Shown: positions 8,598-19,331, numbered from the stretch's first letter. The stretch: DNA of 38,962 bases from a virus (IMGVR_UViG_2703718778_000007:1-38962); one strand, 5' to 3'. Numbers and translations: made by a program. Notes: generated by a model not told the origin, from the sequence alone.

Positions 8598-9314
8598 TCA
8601 AACCAGCCTTAGTTTTGTCTCAATTGCAACGCCTATAATCTTGCAGTTTCCATTGATTGGCACGAGAGGCCATGCAGGATTAAGTCCCTTGAGGTATTTA
8701 TTTCCGCCGTCGATTATCAGCTTCTTGAATGTTGCTTCGTTAGAGTCAGAAAGTTTTGCTATGACCAAGCTGCCGTTGATCGCCTCCCTTCCGGTATCGA
8801 AAAGAACGAATGTTCCCTCTGGAATGCTTAACCCAACCGGTGCCGTCATTGAATCACCTTCCACTTTAAGCCAGAACGCATTACCTTGAATATGCGCGTC
8901 AGACTCAAGCCAAACATCTATGTCTTTAATGGTGTATGGTTCGCATGCTTCACACCACGAGCCAGCCTGGATACTGCTTAACACCGGATACCTCTTTCCT
9001 GCTCTGTATTCCCCTGCATACCTTACGTTGGCATCGCTCTTAAGGCTTTCTGCCTGTTCTGCAACCTTGGCAGCAATTGACTGGCTAAAATCAGCAATTG
9101 AGACTTGCAACAAACGTGCAAAACCAGATGCGACCTCAACGTTTAGCGCGTTTCTGCCATTAAGATAATGCCCTACCGCTCCTTGGGTGATACCCAGTTC
9201 ATCAGCGATTGAGTATTGGGTTATTCCCAATTCTTTCTTTTTTGACTCATACAAAGCCTTAAGCCGCTTAGCGTCTTCGAGCTGTTCTGTCGTCAGTGAT
9301 TTTTTATTTTCCAT
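8598..9314 (-). CDS. cI: CI-type prophage repressor (HTH + S24 LexA-like autopeptidase domain)
   Basis: N-terminus LTTEQLEDAKRLKALYESKKKELGITQ aligns with lambda CI; candidate Ala-Gly cleavage site (RYAGEY) and GDSM...K motifs. Confidence 0.85.
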   Translation of the reverse strand: MENKKSLTTEQLEDAKRLKALYESKKKELGITQYSIADELGITQGAVGHYLNGRNALNVEVASGFARLLQVSIADFSQSIAAKVAEQAESLKSDANVRYAGEYRAGKRYPVLSSIQAGSWCEACEPYTIKDIDVWLESDAHIQGNAFWLKVEGDSMTAPVGLSIPEGTFVLFDTGREAINGSLVIAKLSDSNEATFKKLIIDGGNKYLKGLNPAWPLVPINGNCKIIGVAIETKLRLV

Positions 9315-11006: not shown

Positions 11007-12379
11007 GACAGGATATCGAAGCGAGCGTTATCGGTGGCTTGCTGATTGGTGGATTAACACCAACCGCCAGCGACGTTCTGGCAACGCTGGAGCCGGAAGC
11101 GTTTTCAATTCCGCTCTACCGGAAAGCCTTCGAAGTTATCCGCAAGCAGGCGAGAAACAGAAACCTAATCGACGCGCTGATGGTTGCCGAGGCGTGCGGA
11201 GAGGAGCATTTCACGTCAATCCTGATGACCAGCAAAAACTGCCCGAGTGCCGCAAACCTGAAGGGATATGCCGGAATGGTCGCGGATAACTATCACCGCC
11301 GTCTGGTGCTGGAAATCATGGATGAAATGCGTGAACCAATTCAGAGCGGAACCATCGACGCATCGAGTCAGGCGATGGATGAACTTGTAAAGCGTCTTTC
11401 AGCCATCAGAAAGCCCCGTGACGAGGTTAAACCGGTACGGTTAGGGGAAATCATTACTGACTACACTGACACGCTTGACAGGCGTCTGAGGAACGGAGAA
11501 GAGTCAGATACCCTGAAGACCGGAATCGAAGAACTTGATGCCATCACCGGAGGGATGAACGCGGAAGACCTGGTGATAATCGCTGCTCGTCCTGGTATGG
11601 GGAAAACCGAACTGGCGCTGAAGATTGCCGAAGGCGTTGCAAGCCGCGTTATTCCTGGTTCTGACGTCCGGCGCGGAGTATTGATTTTCTCAATGGAAAT
11701 GAGCGCATTGCAGATTGCAGAGCGAAGCATTGCCAACGCCGGGAGGATGTCGGTTAGCGTACTGCGAAATCCTGCATCAATGGATGACGAGGGCTGGGCA
11801 CGTGTTGCTAACGGCATGAGTCAGCTTGCAGATTTGGATGTATGGGTAGTCGATGCCTCGCGGTTATCGGTCGAAGAAATACGCTCAATCGCAGAACGGC
11901 ACAAACAGGAAAATCCAAACCTGTCACTCATCATGGCGGATTATCTTGGCCTGATTGAGAAGCCGAAAGCAGATCGCAACGACCTCGCAATTGCTCACAT
12001 CTCAGGAAGCCTGAAGGCGATGGCGAAAGACCTGAAAACGCCTGTTATCTCCCTGAGTCAGCTTTCGCGCGATGTTGAGAAGCGACCAAACAAACGCCCG
12101 ACAAACGCAGATTTGCGTGATTCAGGAAGCATTGAGCAGGACGCAGACTCAATCATCATGCTCTATCGGGAAGCGGTATATGACGAGAACAGTAGCGCCG
12201 CGCCATTTGCTGAAATCATCGTGACGAAAAACCGTTTTGGCTCACTTGGTACGGTTTACCAGCGGTTCTGCAACGGACACTTTGTTGCATGTGACCAGGA
12301 TGAAGCCAGACTGATTTGCACAGCATCAAATGTACCTGCTGCGCGTGGCAGACGATATGCGCAAGGGGCTGACGTATGA
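11003..12379 (+). CDS. Replicative DNA helicase (DnaB family)
   Basis: 458 aa; Walker A GMGKT, RecA-like C-terminal domain with DnaB-type motifs. Confidence 0.85.
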
Positions 12380-12404
12380 CCATCTACATCACTGAGCTAA
12401 TAAC

Positions 12405-12436
12405 AGGCCTGCTGGTAATCGCAGGCCTTTTTATTT
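12405..12436 (+). terminator. Rho-independent terminator (tR2-like) after the helicase gene
   Basis: AGGCCTGC-loop-GCAGGCCT followed by TTTTTATTT. Confidence 0.6.
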
Positions 12437-12451
12437 GGGGGAGAGTAAATC

Positions 12452-12658
12452 GTGGTTGAGTTTATGCTCGTCGCACTCAAATGCGTCGGCGTTGGATGGA
12501 TTCTTCTGACGTTTTTTATTGTTCTGCATAGCTACATTCGTCTTGTGAATGACGGTAAAGATCCATGGTATACGTTGTTTGGCGCTGCATTTGTCTGGGT
12601 GATTATCGGTGTTATGCCTGTTGTCGTAGCAAAAGTGGCGTGGCGTTTTGTGAGTTGA
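12452..12658 (+). CDS. Small hydrophobic protein (68 aa, 2 predicted TM helices), GTG start
   Basis: RBS GGGGAGAG before GTG; two hydrophobic helices. Confidence 0.35.
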   Translation: MVEFMLVALKCVGVGWILLTFFIVLHSYIRLVNDGKDPWYTLFGAAFVWVIIGVMPVVVAKVAWRFVS

Positions 12659-12665
12659 GGTAACG

Positions 12666-13112
12666 ATGAAGCAAATATACATGCTTCGCAACGAAGCAAT
12701 CAGAAACAACGCCATAGACGCAATACTCTCACTTCCGATCGACGGCAAGTCACCTCACGAAGTCCACATTAAAGAACCAAAGCGGAGCAATCCTCAAAAC
12801 CGCCTTATGTGGGCGTTATTGCAGGACGTATCGCGTCAGGTGCTTTGGCATGGAGAGAGACTTGCGCCGGAGGACTGGAAAGACCTGTTCACTGCCCTGT
12901 GGCTTAAGACCAAAAAACTGGAGCAACGAAGTGCGCCTGGTATCGACGGTGGCGTTGTTATGCTTGGCGTGCGTACCAGCAAAATGCGAAAGGCCAGCAT
13001 GACTGAGCTTATCGAAATCATGTTCTGGTTCGGCTCAGAGCGCAACGTGCGGTGGAGTGATGACTCCCGGCGAGAGTATGAATGGTCACAACGAAAAGGG
13101 AAGGCTGCATGA
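12666..13112 (+). CDS. ninB: NinB recombination protein
   Basis: Aligns with lambda NinB (RSNPQNRLMWALLQDVSRQVLWHGERL...). Confidence 0.8.
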   Translation: MKQIYMLRNEAIRNNAIDAILSLPIDGKSPHEVHIKEPKRSNPQNRLMWALLQDVSRQVLWHGERLAPEDWKDLFTALWLKTKKLEQRSAPGIDGGVVMLGVRTSKMRKASMTELIEIMFWFGSERNVRWSDDSRREYEWSQRKGKAA

Positions 13113-13636
13113 CTATCAAATCAAATACGCCAGCACACGACAAGGACTGCTGGCAAACGCCGCTTTGGCTTTTTGATGCACTGGATATTGAGTTTGGATT
13201 CTGGCTGGATTCGGCAGCGAGCGACAAAAATGCTCTGTGCGCTCACTGGCTAACTGAGGCTGACGACGCGCTAAATTCTGAGTGGATAAGCCACGGTGCA
13301 ATCTGGAATAACCCACCGTACAGCAATATCAGGCCGTGGGTGGAAAAAGCCGCTGAGCAGTGCATACAACAGCGACAGACGGTAGTTATGCTTGTGCCAG
13401 AGGATATGTCAGTCGGATGGTTCAGCAAGGCTCTGGAGAGTGTCGACGAAGTTCGCATTATCACTGATGGACGGATTAATTTTATCGAACCATCGACAGG
13501 GCTGGAGAAGAATGGAAACAGCAAAGGCTCCATGCTGCTGATTTGGCGACCGTTCATCAGTCCTCGACGGATGTTTACTACCGTATCCAAAGCGGCATTG
13601 ATGGCGATCGGGCAGGGCGTCAGGAGGGCGGCATGA
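13109..13636 (+). CDS. Phage DNA N6-adenine methyltransferase (Dam-like)
   Basis: NPPY motif (WNNPPYS), start overlaps ninB stop as ATGA, RBS AAGGGAAGG. Confidence 0.75.
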
Positions 13637-13809
13637 GGCGACAGCGACGAAGTTTCACCGACATCATCTGCGAAAACTGCAAATACCTTCCAACGAAACG
13701 CTCCAGAAATAAACGCAAGCCAATCCCAAAAGAATCTGACGTAAAAACCTTCAACTACACGGCTCACCTGTGGGATATCCGGTGGCTAAGACATCGTGCG
13801 AGGAAATGA
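13633..13809 (+). CDS. ninE: NinE
   Basis: [52 protein letters not shown] matches lambda NinE as recalled. Confidence 0.75.
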
Positions 13810-14174
13810 CAATGGATTATTCACAGTTAAGTGATTTTGAAATTAACTTAAAAGTCGCGCATATCGTGCTAGGAAAAAACAATTACGACTGGGATCCAGA
13901 AAAGAAAGAAGTTTACTTGGCTGGAATTGATGGTGGTGAGTTTTTGCCTTGCGGATATTTCGACCCATGTAATATGGCCGCTGACGCATATCCGATCATC
14001 ACTGAAAACAAAATTAGCACCATGTGGATGACAGCGGAAAAAGAATGGTGCGCATGGTCAGGAGGTGATTTAGAGGAAGGTTGTTGGGTTCCTGACTACT
14101 GCTTCTGCGGTGAATCGCCTCTCCGCGCAGCCATGATTGTATTTCTAATGATGCAGGATGCCAATAATGCTTAG
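13806..14174 (+). CDS. Conserved nin-region protein (DUF2591-like)
   Basis: ATG overlaps ninE stop (ATGA); family assignment from memory. Confidence 0.45.
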
Positions 14175-14343
14175 CCCATCCCAATCCCTTCAATACCAGA
14201 AAGAAAGCGTCGAGCGAGCTTTAACGTGCGCTAACTGCGGTCAGAAGCTGCATGTGCTGGAAGTTCACGTGTGTGAGCACTGCTGCGCAGAACTGATGAG
14301 CGATCCGAATAGCTCAATGTACGAGGAAGAAGACGATGAATGA
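14167..14343 (+). CDS. ninF: NinF
   Basis: [43 protein letters not shown] matches lambda NinF. Confidence 0.75.
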   Translation: MLSPSQSLQYQKESVERALTCANCGQKLHVLEVHVCEHCCAELMSDPNSSMYEEEDDE

Positions 14344-15058
14344 GTTAATAAATGGCAATGCCATCAAAATGACAAGCATTGAAATCGCTGAGCTTACAGG
14401 TAAGCGTCATGACAATGTGAAACGTACCATCGAAACGCTGGCTAAAAATGGTGTTATCCGGCTTCCTCAAATTGAGGATTGTGGAAGAATCAATGGGTTA
14501 GGCTTAAATCAAAGTTTTTGTGTGTATGTATTCGAAGGCGAACAAGGAAAGCGAGACAGTATTGTCGTTGTAGCCCAGCTGTCGCCGGAATTCACCGCTC
14601 GCCTTGTTGACCGCTGGCGAGAGCTTGAAGAAGCTGCGGTTAATATCCCCAAAACGCTACCAGAAGCGTTGCGCCTTGCTGCTGATCTTGCTGAGCAGAA
14701 AATGCAACTGGAAAACCAGCTCGCAATTGCCGCACCTAAAGTTGAGTTTGCCGATCGCGTTGGCGAGGCCAGCGGAATTTTGATTGGAAACTTTGCAAAG
14801 GTTGTTGGAATTGGTCCAAACAAACTGTTTGCGTGGATGCGCGATCACAAAATCCTTATTGCTTCAGGTTCCCGGCGCAATGTGCCAATGCAGGAATATA
14901 TGGATCGCGGCTATTTCACAGTGAAAGAAACAGCGGTCAACACAAATCACGGGATACAGATATCGTTCACCACAAAAATCACCGGGCGTGGTCAACAGTG
15001 GCTGACCAGAAAGCTGATCGATAACGGAATGCTGAAAGTAACAGGGGAGGCTGCTTAA
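14336..15058 (+). CDS. Antirepressor (Rha-like N-terminal domain + KilA-C/ANT C-terminal domain)
   Basis: 240 aa; N-terminal MTSIEIAELTGKRHDNVKR HTH-like; start overlaps ninF 3' end. Confidence 0.65.
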   Translation: MNELINGNAIKMTSIEIAELTGKRHDNVKRTIETLAKNGVIRLPQIEDCGRINGLGLNQSFCVYVFEGEQGKRDSIVVVAQLSPEFTARLVDRWRELEEAAVNIPKTLPEALRLAADLAEQKMQLENQLAIAAPKVEFADRVGEASGILIGNFAKVVGIGPNKLFAWMRDHKILIASGSRRNVPMQEYMDRGYFTVKETAVNTNHGIQISFTTKITGRGQQWLTRKLIDNGMLKVTGEAA

Positions 15059-15348
15059 TGGCTAACCTACGCAAAGAAGCGCGCGGCAGAGAATGCCAGG
15101 TACGTATTTACGGCGTATGCAATGGCAATCCTGAAACCACAGTTCTGGCACATTACCGGATGGCTGGAATTTGCGGAACGGGAATGAAGCCTGACGACCT
15201 GATCGGCGCATGGGCTTGTAGCGCGTGTCACGATGAAATCGACCGACGCACCCATAACCTCGACAACAAAGACGCCAGACTTTACCACCTCGAAGGCGTG
15301 ATCAGGACGCAGGCGATACTGCTGAAGGAGGGGAAGATTAAGTCATGA
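15058..15348 (+). CDS. DUF1364 / YbcO-like putative nuclease
   Basis: Cys-rich MANLRKEARGRECQVRIYGVCNGNPETTVLAHYR...; TAATG overlap with upstream gene. Confidence 0.6.
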   Translation: MANLRKEARGRECQVRIYGVCNGNPETTVLAHYRMAGICGTGMKPDDLIGAWACSACHDEIDRRTHNLDNKDARLYHLEGVIRTQAILLKEGKIKS

Positions 15349-15707
15349 ACGAATATCAGTTTGTGCTTCCATACCCGCCGTCGGTGAACACCTACTGGCG
15401 AAGACGGGGAAGCCAATACTACATCAGCGATAAAGGCCAGAAATACCGAAAAGACGTTCAGCAAATCATCCATCAACTCAAGTTAGACATTTTCACCAAA
15501 TCACGACTCCGCATCAAAGTCATCGCAGACGTTCCAGACTCCCGCCGCCGCGACCTCGATAACATCCTGAAAGGTTTACTCGATTCCCTTATCCACGCCG
15601 GATTTGCGGAAGACGACGAGCAATTCGATGACATTCGCGTAATTCGTGGTGTGAAAGTACCAGGCGGACGGCTTGGAATAAAAATCACCGAACTGGAGAA
15701 CGCATGA
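15345..15707 (+). CDS. rusA: RusA Holliday-junction resolvase
   Basis: PDSRRRDLDNILKGLLDSL and C-terminal GGRLGIKITEL align with E. coli RusA. Confidence 0.8.
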   Translation: MNEYQFVLPYPPSVNTYWRRRGSQYYISDKGQKYRKDVQQIIHQLKLDIFTKSRLRIKVIADVPDSRRRDLDNILKGLLDSLIHAGFAEDDEQFDDIRVIRGVKVPGGRLGIKITELENA

Positions 15708-15892
15708 ACGCCACAATTCAAACGATACCAGAGCTTCTTATCCAGACACGAGGCAATCAGACCGAAGTGGCGAGGATGCTTTCCTGTGCAAGAGGAACAG
15801 TGCTCAAGTACAACCGAGACAGCAAAGGTGAGCGTCACGTAATAGTTAACGGCGTCCTGATGGTCAAACAGGGCAAGAGGGGTAGACCATGA
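15704..15892 (+). CDS. ninH: NinH
   Basis: GNQTEVARMLSCARGTVLKY matches lambda NinH GNQTEVARRLKCSRGTVRKY. Confidence 0.7.
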   Translation: MNATIQTIPELLIQTRGNQTEVARMLSCARGTVLKYNRDSKGERHVIVNGVLMVKQGKRGRP

Positions 15893-16512
15893 GACTCGAA
15901 AGTGTAGCTAAATTTCATTCGCCAAAAAGCCCGATGATGAGCGACTCACCACGGGCCACGGCTTCTGACTCTCTTTCCGGTACTGATGTGATGGCTGCTA
16001 TGGGGATGGCGCAATCACAAGCCGGATTCGGAATGGCTGCATTCTGCGGTAAGCATGAACTCAGCCAGAACGACAAACAAAAGGCTATCAACTATCTGAT
16101 GCAATTTGCACACAAGGTATCGGGGAAATACCGTGGTGTGGCAAAGCTTGAAGGAAATACTAAGGCAAAGGTACTGCAAGTGCTCGCAACATTCGCTTAT
16201 GCGGATTATTGCCGTAGTGCCGCGACGCCGGGCGCAAGATGCAGAGATTGCCACGGTACAGGCCGTGCGGTTGATATAGCCAAAACAGAGCAGTGGGGGA
16301 GAGTTGTTGAGAAAGAGTGCGGAAGATGCAAAGGTGTCGGCTATTCAAGAATGCCAGCAAGCGCCGCATATCGCGCTGTAACGATGCTAATCCCAAACCT
16401 TACTCAACCCACCTGGTCACGCACTGTTAAGCCGCTGTATGACGCTCTGGTGGTGCAATGCCACAAAGAAGAGTCAATCGCAGACAACATTTTGAATGCG
16501 GTCACACGTTAG
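15889..16512 (+). CDS. Q: Late gene antiterminator Q (lambda-type)
   Basis: 207 aa, MRLESVAKFHSPKSPMMSDSPRATASDS...; matches lambda Q as I remember it essentially throughout. Confidence 0.9.
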   Translation: MRLESVAKFHSPKSPMMSDSPRATASDSLSGTDVMAAMGMAQSQAGFGMAAFCGKHELSQNDKQKAINYLMQFAHKVSGKYRGVAKLEGNTKAKVLQVLATFAYADYCRSAATPGARCRDCHGTGRAVDIAKTEQWGRVVEKECGRCKGVGYSRMPASAAYRAVTMLIPNLTQPTWSRTVKPLYDALVVQCHKEESIADNILNAVTR

Positions 16513-16554
16513 CAGCATGATTGCCACGGATGGCAACATATTAACGGCATGATA

Positions 16555-16590
16555 TTGACTTTTTGAATAAAGTTGGGTAAATTTGACCCA
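16555..16590 (+). promoter_or_regulatory. Late promoter pR' with overlapping qut site
   Basis: -35 TTGACT 16555-16560, 17-bp spacer, -10 TAAATT 16578-16583; same arrangement as lambda pR'. Confidence 0.6.
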
Positions 16591-16782
16591 ACGATGGGTT
16601 AATTCGCTCGTTGTGGTAGTGAGATGAAAAGAGGCGGCGCTTACTACCGGTTCCGCCTAGTTGGTCACTTCGACGTATCGTCTGGAACTCCAACCATTGC
16701 AGGCTGAGAGGTTTGCAAAATGCAATCCCGGAACAGTTCGCAGGTAATAGTTAGAGCCTGCATAACGGTTTCGGGATTTTTT
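16591..16782 (+). ncRNA. 6S-like late leader RNA ending at tR'
   Basis: Transcript from pR' to tR' of about 190 nt, as in lambda. Confidence 0.45.
16725..16782 (+). terminator. tR' terminator (long interrupted hairpin + T-run)
   Basis: ATCCCGGAAC ... GTTTCGGGAT followed by TTTTTT. Confidence 0.55.
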
Positions 16783-17225
16783 ATATCTGTGCAACAGGTA
16801 AGAGCATTCTCCCTTATGGGGCTTGGCTTAAATGCACCGAGTGCTCTTATCGTTGTGGTGAAGCTCAATGGCGAGCTAGCAGATAGGCGACAGTGAAAAT
16901 ACTAGTCATGTAGCTGACCGCCGCGCGTACTGCAATCGGCAGCGCACCGATGGAAGCCGGTTCGATTCCGGCCGCCACAACCCAAACTGAGCCGTAGCCA
17001 CTGGCTATCCTGAATTCATCAGTGATAGTTACGCTGCGGCCTTCTACACATGACCTTCGTGAAAGCGGGTGGCATGAGGTTGCGCTAACAACCTCCTGCC
17101 GTTTTGCCCGTGCATATCGGTCACGAACAAATCTGATTACTAAACACAGTAGCCTGGATTTGTTCTATCAGTAATCGACCTTATTCCTAATTAAATAGAG
17201 CAAATCCCCTTATTGGGGGTAAGAC

Positions 17226-17549
17226 ATGAAGATGCCAGAAAAACATGACCTGTTAGCCGCCATTCTCGCGGCAAAGGAACAAGGCATCGGGGCAATCCTT
17301 GCGTTTGCAATGGCGTACCTTCGCGGCAGATATAATGGCGGTGCGTTTACAAAAACAGTAATCGACGCAACGATGTGCGCCATTATCGCCTGGTTCATTC
17401 GTGACCTTCTCGACTTCGCCGGACTAAGTAGCAATCTCGCTTATATAACGAGCGTGTTTATCGGCTACATCGGTACTGACTCGATTGGTTCGCTTATCAA
17501 ACGCTTCGCTGCTAAAAAAGCCGGAGTAGAAGATGGTGGAAATCAATAA
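17226..17549 (+). CDS. S: Holin S (class I, dual-start MKM: holin/antiholin)
   Basis: [34 protein letters not shown]... matches lambda S. Confidence 0.9.
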
Positions 17550-18009
17550 TCAACGTAAGGCGTTCCTCGATATGCTGGCGTGGTCGGAGGGAACTGATAA
17601 CGGACGTCAGAAAACCAGAAATCATGGTTATGACGTCATTGTTGGCGGAGAGCTATTCACTGATTACTCCGATCACCCTCGCAAACTTGTCACGCTAAAC
17701 CCAAAACTCAAATCAACAGCCGCCGGACGCTACCAGCTTCTTTCCCGTTGGTGGGATGCCTACCGCAAGCAGCTTGGCCTGAAAGACTTCTCTCCGAAAA
17801 GCCAGGACGCTGTGGCACTGCAACAGATTAAAGAGCGTGGCGCTTTACCGATGATTGACCGCGGTGATATTCGTCAGGCAATCGACCGTTGCAGCAATAT
17901 CTGGGCTTCACTGCCGGGCGCTGGTTATGGTCAGTTCGAGCATAAGACTGACAGCCTGATTGCAAAATTCAAAGAAGCAGGCGGAACGGTCAGAGAGATT
18001 GAGGTATGA
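17533..18009 (+). CDS. R: Endolysin R (lytic transglycosylase)
   Basis: [35 protein letters not shown]... matches lambda R. Confidence 0.9.
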
Positions 18010-18464
18010 ACAGAGTAACCGCGATTATCTCTGCTCTGGTTATCTGCATCATCGTCTGCCTGTCATGGGCTGTTAATCATTACCGTGATAACGCCATCGC
18101 CTACAAAGAGCAGCGCGATAACAAGGCCAGTGAACTGGAGAAGGCGAACGCTACCATCGCTGACATGCGGAAGCGTCAACGTGATGTAGCAGAACTCGAC
18201 GCAAGATACACAAAGGAGCTTGCTGATGCTAACGCGACTATCGAAAGTCTCCGTGCTGATGTTTCTGCTGGGCGTAAGCGCCTGCAAGTCGCCGCCACCT
18301 GTGCAAAGTCAACGACCGGAGCCAGCGGCATGGGCGATGGAGAAAGCCCAAGACTTACAGCAGATGCTGAACTCAATTATTACCGTCTCCGAAGTGGAAT
18401 CGACAGGATAACCGCGCAGGTTAACTACTTGCAGGAATACATCAGGACGCAATGCCTTCGATGA
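18006..18464 (+). CDS. Rz: Spanin Rz (i-spanin)
   Basis: [31 protein letters not shown]... matches lambda Rz N-terminus; coiled-coil. Confidence 0.85.
18220..18411 (+). CDS. Rz1: Rz1 (o-spanin lipoprotein) embedded in the +1 frame of Rz
   Basis: Lipobox-like LLGVSAC, Pro-rich mature part; nested inside Rz as in lambda. Confidence 0.7.
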
Positions 18465-18812: not shown

Positions 18813-19331
18813 ATGAATCATCAATTGGCTAATCTCGATTTCCGGGACATGGTGGTTGTTTCTGGTGATCGCGTGATCACAACCTCCCGCAAGGTAGCAG
18901 CTTACTTCGACAAGCAGCATCACCACATCATTCAGAAAATCGAAAAGCTAGACTGTTCGGATGAATTTCTAACCAGCAACTTTTCGCGGGTTACCTATGA
19001 ACACAAGGGTAATCAGTATGTTGAATATGAAATTTCCAAAGACGGCGCGATGTACATCATCATGTCGTTTACCGGCAAAAAAGCTGCCGCCATCAAAGAG
19101 GCGTTTATCAAAGCATTTAATTGGATGCGTGACAGGCTGATGGAGATGGCTCACTCATACCAAAGAGAGCACAACGAGTTAATGCTGGAGTTCATGAAGG
19201 AAAAGGATGTTGCCAGTATGTCAGGACGCTTGCTGAACCGCTGGGGCAGGATCAAAAAACCGCAACTCATAGCAAGAATCGAAAGGCTTGAGCAGCAGGC
19301 GCAAATATCGATCCCCGGACTGCCAAAGTGA
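18813..19331 (+). CDS. Rha-family phage regulatory protein
   Basis: ATG at 18813 with RBS AGGTAAAG; Phage_pRha-like N-terminal region. Confidence 0.6.
   Translation: MNHQLANLDFRDMVVVSGDRVITTSRKVAAYFDKQHHHIIQKIEKLDCSDEFLTSNFSRVTYEHKGNQYVEYEISKDGAMYIIMSFTGKKAAAIKEAFIKAFNWMRDRLMEMAHSYQREHNELMLEFMKEKDVASMSGRLLNRWGRIKKPQLIARIERLEQQAQISIPGLPK

Follow-up and report, generated by a model that had tools for sequence, protein, structure and literature searches.

Roi of phage HK022 reportedly binds a site within its own gene that adjoins a site for integration host factor (IHF), which is said to stabilise the binding. Here, we present an analysis of the roi gene in a viral DNA stretch of 38,962 nucleotides (nt) (IMGVR_UViG_2703718778_000007:1-38962; the whole stretch is called the window, and all positions are counted from its first letter), which represents a P22-like prophage of the HK620/Kapi1 type carrying a CI repressor with an S24 self-cleavage domain, CII and a lambda-type Q. 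Within the reading frame of this gene lies a perfect palindrome, a candidate operator, whose bases covary with residues of a putative recognition helix encoded just upstream. Judging from sequence comparison, we consider it probable that Roi, aided by IHF, acts on a site in its own gene and thereby keeps its own production in check.

HK022 Roi is described, in the passages of two papers that cite Clerget & Boccard 1996, as a DNA-binding protein affecting lytic growth in IHF mutants (PMC3430580, PMC4587872). Similarly, Rha of phages phi80 and P22, which shares with Roi the N-terminal Phage_pRha family, blocks lytic growth in IHF-deficient hosts, as stated in the part of PMC4936722 that cites Mozola & Friedman 1985 and Henthorn & Friedman 1995. 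Unlike Roi, Rha has an ORF11CD3 rather than a KilAC domain at its C-terminus, and its gene follows the lysis genes. Further literature searches on Roi function gave only mentions in genome annotations.

The open reading frame (ORF) at 14336-15058 is roi, a known accessory gene of lambdoid nin regions that has been annotated at this position since the 1990s and is among the commonest accessory genes of E. coli prophages. A first reading of the stretch, made from the sequence alone and hereafter called the sequence-only reading, had pointed out an antirepressor-like gene embedded in the nin operon. The placement is not unusual; the observation is already known and the arrangement standard: roi is found in the same position in HK022, HK97, HK620, CUS-3, Kapi1 and Stx phages, and 1107 of 5426 complete E. 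coli genomes, about one in five, carry it, usually as ninF-roi-ybcO. The same gene is annotated in HK97, HK620, CUS-3, 933W/Phi24B and Kapi1, and the labels in related phage records are roi, 'DNA-binding protein Roi' or 'anti-repressor'. The 2.1-kb segment around roi is 93-96% identical to HK022, HK97, HK620, CUS-3, Kapi1 and many others. At the protein level, the window Roi is 95% identical to Kapi1 gp032 and 88% identical over 240 amino acids to HK022 Roi, most of residues 64-240 being 100% identical in the latter comparison. In both the window and HK022, the gene lies between ninF and ybcO/rusA, upstream of Q, and an IHF core and the centre of a palindrome occupy matching positions in it, whereas the phages themselves differ (a P22-like podovirus of HK620/Kapi1 type in the window, a siphovirus in HK022). 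The antirepressor finding as stated in the sequence-only reading adds nothing to this; the one point worth following up is the intragenic operator together with its apparent recognition code.

A palindrome within the roi reading frame

The features of roi on which the argument rests are as follows.

14336-15058, + strand: roi, ATG start, 240 amino acids, Rha-like N-terminal and KilAC/ANT C-terminal domain (ORF call on the window)
14369-14632, + strand: Phage_pRha domain of winged-helix type, codons 12-99 (Pfam)
14402-14440, + strand: putative recognition helix, codons 23-35, KRHDNVKRTIETL, of which residues 27, 30, 31 and 34 covary with bases of the palindrome
14464-14478, no strand assigned: perfect 7+1+7 dyad TCCTCAA-A-TTGAGGA within roi, codons 43-48, candidate Roi operator
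14488-14500, + strand: IHF core AATCAATGGGTTA (consensus WATCAANNNNTTR), the only perfect match in the 38,962 nt
14711-15016, + strand: ANT/KilAC domain, codons 126-227 (Pfam, 112 bits), nearly invariant in the alignment of enterobacterial Roi

Alignment of the enterobacterial Roi proteins shows them to be near-identical except for residues 21-63, a patch that occurs in at least seven forms. The patch comprises the predicted recognition helix (residues 23-35) and the next hairpin (wing) of the Rha-type domain. Relative to HK022 Roi, all changes in the window protein fall within this patch, apart from one conservative change at residue 228, and the two proteins carry different helix/wing alleles (KRHDNVKRTIETL in the window, SRHSNVKVSIDRL in HK022) together with different half-sites (TCCTCAA in the window, TCCTGCA in HK022). 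A low-confidence AlphaFold2 model places the helix at residues 25-37. The model was built with 40 close homologues and was unusable (predicted local distance difference test, pLDDT, 39; predicted template modelling score, pTM, 0.35), because the input sequences lacked diversity. A sequence search of solved structures with Roi gave nothing meaningful, with an unrelated CBS protein as the best match (E 0.067), and a protein search gave only relatives of at least 83% identity. As a separate observation in the same enterobacterial alignment (A3), the inter-domain linker at residues 100-128 exists in two discrete forms, EAAVNIPKTLPEALRLAADLAEQKMQLENQLAIAA and GATAKIPQTFSEALRLAADLEDQKAELEKQLALAA, which recombine independently of the N-terminal patch.

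The dyad at 14464-14478 is the best palindrome of roi, and no second copy of it was found in the window at two or fewer mismatches. At the same centre, other alleles carry different palindromes: TCCTGCA-T-TGCAGCA in HK022 (TCCTGCATTGCAGCA), TCCTGCA-T-TGCAGGT in allele G, TCCCCCA-A-TGGGGGA in allele H, and TCCCCCA-A-TGGTGGT, with one inner-arm mismatch, in allele F. The Stx2-phage allele (E) has no dyad at this centre and no IHF core either. Among ten distinct sequences, the arms pair in 85.7% of cells, as compared with 30-50% in slid-partner controls; three pairs are changed on both sides in a compensatory manner, and none of 500 shuffles reached the observed score.

The pattern extends across Proteobacteria. 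For a family test, we used 86 Roi-like genes with 27-90% identity, comprising six distant phage homologues (27-47%) and 80 bacterial loci from one-genome-per-species assemblies of Gamma-, Beta- and Alphaproteobacteria, mostly at 38-62% identity. At the nucleotide homologous to 14471, perfect arms of at least 5 bp are present in 56 of the 86 genes and of at least 6 bp in 51, whereas elsewhere in these genes such arms occur at a background frequency per position of 0.0014 (5 bp) and 0.0006 (6 bp). The half-sites fall into the classes CCTCAA, CCTCCA, CCTGCA, CCCCCA, CCACCA, CCGCCA and CCTCAG. Of 58 distinct sequences, 54 have a Pro44 codon whose synonymous third base complements the second base of codon 47; what is constrained is therefore the nucleic acid rather than the protein.

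Several side observations concern palindromes in this and other genes. In five loci (L090 at 9115-9157, L268, L291, L312 and L286), the arms are lengthened to 10-11 bp (AACTTCC....GGAAGTT), and these long-arm versions are without the IHF core, as if the longer dyad and the IHF site were alternatives. In the Stx1a phage Stx1_8100 (L083), codon 45 of roi is changed from CAA to TAA, which places an in-frame stop inside the dyad (CCTTAAATTGAGG) and makes roi a pseudogene there. Insertions of IS629 in roi of Stx2a phages have also been published (PMC4587872), and from these two kinds of disruption it follows that roi is dispensable. The rha gene of the window has no equivalent dyad, only an unrelated palindrome with 6-bp arms (GTGATC-GCGT-GATCAC, 18865-18880, codons 18-23) that contains two Dam GATC sites. 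Elsewhere in the nin region, arms of 7 bp occur in one palindrome only, TGCTTCG-CAA-CGAAGCA (12682-12698), at the very start of ninB.

The IHF core starts 17 nt after the dyad centre, inside the variable patch, and a copy with one mismatch follows at 14507-14519. Taken alone, one perfect core in the window is not significant, since 2.5 would be expected, and a relaxed scan was uninformative (37 sites with one mismatch, 44.7 expected). The weight of the core comes from its conservation at a fixed offset: it occurs at the same +17 position in 12 of the 86 genes, including those of Gilliamella, Acinetobacter and a Stenotrophomonas assembly.

The identity of the half-site bases follows the identity of residues in the putative recognition helix. 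Residue 27 corresponds to half-site base 4 in 47 of 47 cases (N/T, K/C, S/A and D/G). Base 5 is G where residue 30 is V, I or T and C where it is R or Q, and base 6 is C where residue 34 is Arg and A where it is another residue. Read on the opposite strand, these pairings are the chemically usual ones, in which Lys or Arg meets G, Asp meets C and Asn meets A. Based on their i, i+3, i+4, i+7 spacing, residues 27, 30, 31 and 34 would lie on one face of the helix. From the combination of symmetry, position and covariation, we infer that the palindrome is likely to be the binding site of Roi.

Proposed autoregulation and its alternatives

In the mechanism that we propose, a dimer of the N-terminal domain would bind the palindrome at 14464-14478 in roi's own coding sequence and, in the window allele, IHF at 14488-14500 would help Roi to bind. 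The bound complex would probably hinder the passage of RNA polymerase through roi as a roadblock and in this way set the dose of Roi, and possibly also that of downstream genes including Q, with the KilAC domain acting as the presumed output module. Loss of IHF would then loosen the control, and the excess of Roi would harm phage growth. Such harm fits the report that wild-type Roi prevents lytic growth if IHF is missing, and also the P1 record on kilA, which encodes another KilAC protein and whose 'product can kill host'; relatives with this domain do harm when made in excess.

More generally, we see roughly even chances that Roi-family genes are self-contained, promoter-less autoregulatory cassettes, in which the operator is written in the codons of the wing of the very domain that would read it, with an amino-acid-to-base code linking both. 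If so, specificity and target would travel and diversify together, which would explain how roi can be dropped into any operon and yet control its own dose. The settings in which roi-like genes occur include nin regions, P1-like plasmids, Jersey-type phages and prophages of Gamma-, Beta- and Alphaproteobacteria. Neither the conservation across the family nor the code seems to have been reported before; for HK022 alone, the site may already be mapped in the HK022 paper. The model is concrete and testable, as it predicts which bases Roi reads and by which residues, and it offers a reason for the IHF-dependent phenotype common to Roi and Rha. If it is true, roi would represent a natural case of a regulator with its operator in its own reading frame, and the matched specificity variants could be reused as orthogonal parts.

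A number of points weigh against this interpretation. The dyad is absent in 30 of the 86 genes, including the Stx2-phage allele, an Aeromonas subgroup and an Aggregatibacter-like subgroup, and allele F, whose dyad has a mismatched pair, is the commonest allele in E. coli. Only about 60-100 nt separate the helix codons from the dyad, so the two may be co-inherited as one block. As the half-site classes are few (about seven), the correlation rests on perhaps six independent changes. The structure model (pLDDT 39) is too poor to use, and both the autoregulation by roadblock and the effect on Q are pure inference. Moreover, the covariation between the arms would look no different if they formed an RNA hairpin with a 3-nt loop, and for allele H (L090) a hairpin of -23.4 kcal/mol with 11 pairs is predicted (z -4.7).

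The last two points belong to a different explanation, in which the palindrome is an RNA stem-loop of the nin mRNA serving as a processing, pausing or translational element. In the window the predicted hairpin reaches -13.2 kcal/mol (z -2.1), and some genes have arms of 9-11 bp, as would suit such a stem. The HK022 and F alleles, in contrast, fold no better than shuffles (z -1.1 and -0.6), and only one base separates the members of the innermost A/T pair, which therefore could not pair in RNA. The left base of this innermost pair, at the synonymous third position of codon 45, is nevertheless A in nearly all dyad genes, or G by synonymous change. An RNA stem would also give no reason for residues 27, 30 and 34 to track the base identities, let alone with pairings that are chemically sensible, and Roi is reported to bind DNA inside the gene. 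We therefore regard an RNA element as quite unlikely and favour a DNA site bound by Roi itself.

Antirepression and SOS modulation

The sequence-only reading had described a two-domain protein of 240 amino acids with a Rha-like N-terminal and a KilAC/ANT C-terminal domain, and this architecture is borne out by Pfam, in which both domains score above their cut-offs. The match to ANT/KilAC (PF03374), for which that reading had proposed a domain search, covers residues 126-227 (E 1.9e-32, 112.2 bits, cut-off 25.3); that to Phage_pRha (PF09669) covers residues 12-99 and is a weak, marginal pass (E 3.8e-8, 34.2 bits, cut-off 29.9). No NCBIfam model matches Roi, the Rha model (TIGR02681) included, and PHROG 63, 'anti-repressor Ant', matches at E 1e-95. 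The operon context in that reading likewise stands, but 'antirepressor' is a homology label, resting on a C-terminal half that is 54% identical to P1 Ant1.

P1 Ant1/Ant2 and KilA are the founding members of the Pfam family ANT/KilAC, and it is the C-terminal 189 residues of Roi that show the 54% identity to Ant1. Ant1 differs from Roi in its N-terminal half, in its location in an immI region under the control of the C4 antisense RNA and Icd, and in its documented complex with the C1 repressor. In the P1 record (L238), a predicted IHF site is marked within ant1 as well, close to where ant2 starts (48945-48957), an observation that parallels the IHF core in roi.

Roi could accordingly be imagined as a true antirepressor that inactivates the CI of its own prophage or the repressors of co-resident prophages and, being made from pR, acts as a feed-forward commitment device. 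The likeness to Ant1 speaks for this, as the P1 record states that Ant1 'antagonizes C1 repression by formation of Ant1/Ant2/C1 complex', and both PHROG 63 and RefSeq call the Roi family anti-repressor. Additionally, a different protein, the P22-Ant-like Ant of Phi24B, is also encoded in the nin region of an Stx phage and promotes efficient induction (PMC3064807, PMC3430580). The remaining evidence points the other way. HK022 Roi, the one close relative that has been characterised, is cited as a DNA-binding protein, and the true P22-Ant-like antirepressor of Stx phages is a gene of its own, just upstream of roi (PMC3430580, PMC3064807). Among 150 related loci, 85 of which have a recognisable CI, one and the same Roi allele turns up alongside 5-7 different CI clusters, any cluster is in turn shared by several Roi alleles, and the KilAC half is nearly invariant. 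The CI of the window has an S24 self-cleavage domain and therefore needs no antirepressor for SOS induction, and roi would be silent until CI is already gone. Roi homologues are also present in Jersey-type phages (S102), which are generally considered virulent, and in Listeria a KilAC domain was found to do something else, namely to inhibit the SOS response (PMC9043618). We consider antirepression possible, though unlikely, and not the best-supported reading; the term appears to be a label inherited from P1 Ant1 and, since the activity is only a homology label, it provides no basis for inferring how the prophage is induced.

The linkage data exclude one specific candidate, a cognate pairing of Roi with CI, since alleles assort freely with CI clusters; a broad-spectrum antirepressor is unaffected by this result. 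Roi gave no Pfam match to P22_AR_N or P22_AR_C; its family is unrelated to P22 Ant, and in this respect it does not belong with the antirepressors of immI regions.

The Listeria protein, AriS of phage phi10403S, belongs to the same architecture class as Roi, with a variable N-terminal regulatory domain followed by a C-terminal KilAC domain, and it suggests another role, in which Roi would damp RecA activity through its KilAC domain during lytic growth and regulate phage genes through its N-terminal domain. The ANT/KilAC domain of AriS alone blocks SOS induction, and pRha plus KilAC is among the architectures listed for AriS-like proteins, in which the N-terminal partners of KilAC vary between AntA/B, Bro-N and pRha (PMC9043618). 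A conserved host target would moreover explain the invariance of KilAC among heteroimmune phages. AriS is, unlike Roi, a protein of a Firmicute phage with an AntA/AntB N-terminus; it has been studied only in Firmicutes and resembles Roi in the Pfam domain alone. What has been demonstrated for AriS is that it inhibits SOS when over-expressed, whereas at native expression levels it did not (PMC9043618). We judge an SOS-modulating function of Roi very unlikely and prefer to interpret Roi as a probably autoregulated DNA-binding protein.

Operon context and neighbouring genes

The gene order ninB-dam-ninX-ninF-roi-ybcO-rusA-ninH-Q, between the replication genes and Q, is the same in the window, HK022 and Kapi1. 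The features that bear on the expression of roi, and the two further regulatory genes of the window, are the following.

12405-12428, + strand: terminator-like hairpin, AGGCCTGC...GCAGGCCT followed by a T-run, with 8 pairs (6 of them G-C) and then TTTTATTT
14158-14343, + strand: ninF (Pfam NinF, 47 bits; PHROG 672)
14323-14327, + strand: Shine-Dalgarno sequence GAGGA for roi, within ninF, 8-9 nt from the ATG, read from the sequence
15058-15348, + strand: ybcO/hkbD, putative nuclease (Pfam YbcO, 150 bits)
15345-16512, + strand: rusA, ninH and the Q antiterminator (NinH 86 bits, Antiterm 192 bits), all overlapping or abutting
18813-19331, + strand: rha, second Rha-domain gene, after the lysis genes (Phage_pRha 84 bits, ORF11CD3 84 bits, TIGR02681 76 bits)
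34139-34432, - strand: mnt-like gene with Arc and Repressor_Mnt domains, abutting the tailspike gene (which starts at 34473)

The sequence-only reading had placed the start of roi inside the 3' end of ninF, and the sequence agrees: ninF ends with GAC GAT GAA TGA, so that the roi ATG (14336-14338) precedes the ninF stop codon TGA (14341-14343) and the overlap amounts to 8 nt. At the other end, the roi stop codon TAA (15056-15058) shares one base with the ybcO ATG (TAATG). The 8-nt overlap with ninF recurs in 104 of 146 related loci, and the TAATG junction with the next gene (ybcO or ninG) in all 146. This gene layout suggests that roi is translationally coupled to both ninF and ybcO.

The genes from ninB through Q overlap or abut on one strand, and the strong hairpin at 12405-12428, which directly follows the DnaB-like helicase gene, takes the place of lambda tR2 and marks the entry to the nin region. 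A promoter scan found no sigma-70-like site on the + strand of 12429-16555, in line with the proposal that roi has no dedicated promoter, and no LexA box (CTGT-N8-ACAG) was found in 11481-18070 even with one mismatch, whereas LexA-controlled antirepressors (Tum of phage 186, AntC of N15, Gifsy type) have a promoter of their own overlapped by such a box. Given the overlapping genes, the terminator and the absence of promoter-like sites and LexA boxes in these intervals, roi is therefore probably expressed from the rightward early transcript. If the lambda nin region is a guide, it would be transcribed on the delayed-early part after antitermination, together with ninB to Q.

The best sigma-70-like match of the region, TTGGCA-17-TACAAT (10/12) at 14164..14136 on the - strand, is leftward and antisense at the ninX/ninF junction; it may be due to chance, as the scan found fewer sites than in shuffles. 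In the allele H loci (L090, L091 and L092), roi is uncoupled from ninF: upstream of it, across a gap of about 150 nt, lies a P63C-domain gene, and downstream lie ninG and a metallophosphatase gene. Since the neighbourhood of this allele differs, roi therefore moves as a unit among nin-region contexts.

The second Rha-family gene, which the sequence-only reading had located at 18813-19331, was recovered there with the domain matches listed above. Its product is 100% identical to the 'Rha transcriptional regulator' of phage Gally, and BLASTP of Roi against it gave negligible direct similarity. In P22, the immI region consists of mnt-arc-ant, whereas roi in the window lies in the nin region, away from the mnt-like gene. 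No arc or ant was found beside this mnt-like gene, which appears to be what is left of a P22-type immI region after loss of the antirepressor.

Two other genes of the window are recorded here as minor observations. The nin region encodes a Dam-family N6-adenine methyltransferase (13082-13636), and an acyltransferase-3 gene (36384-37490) beside the integrase end is likely to serve O-antigen modification (seroconversion), as in related P22-like phages.

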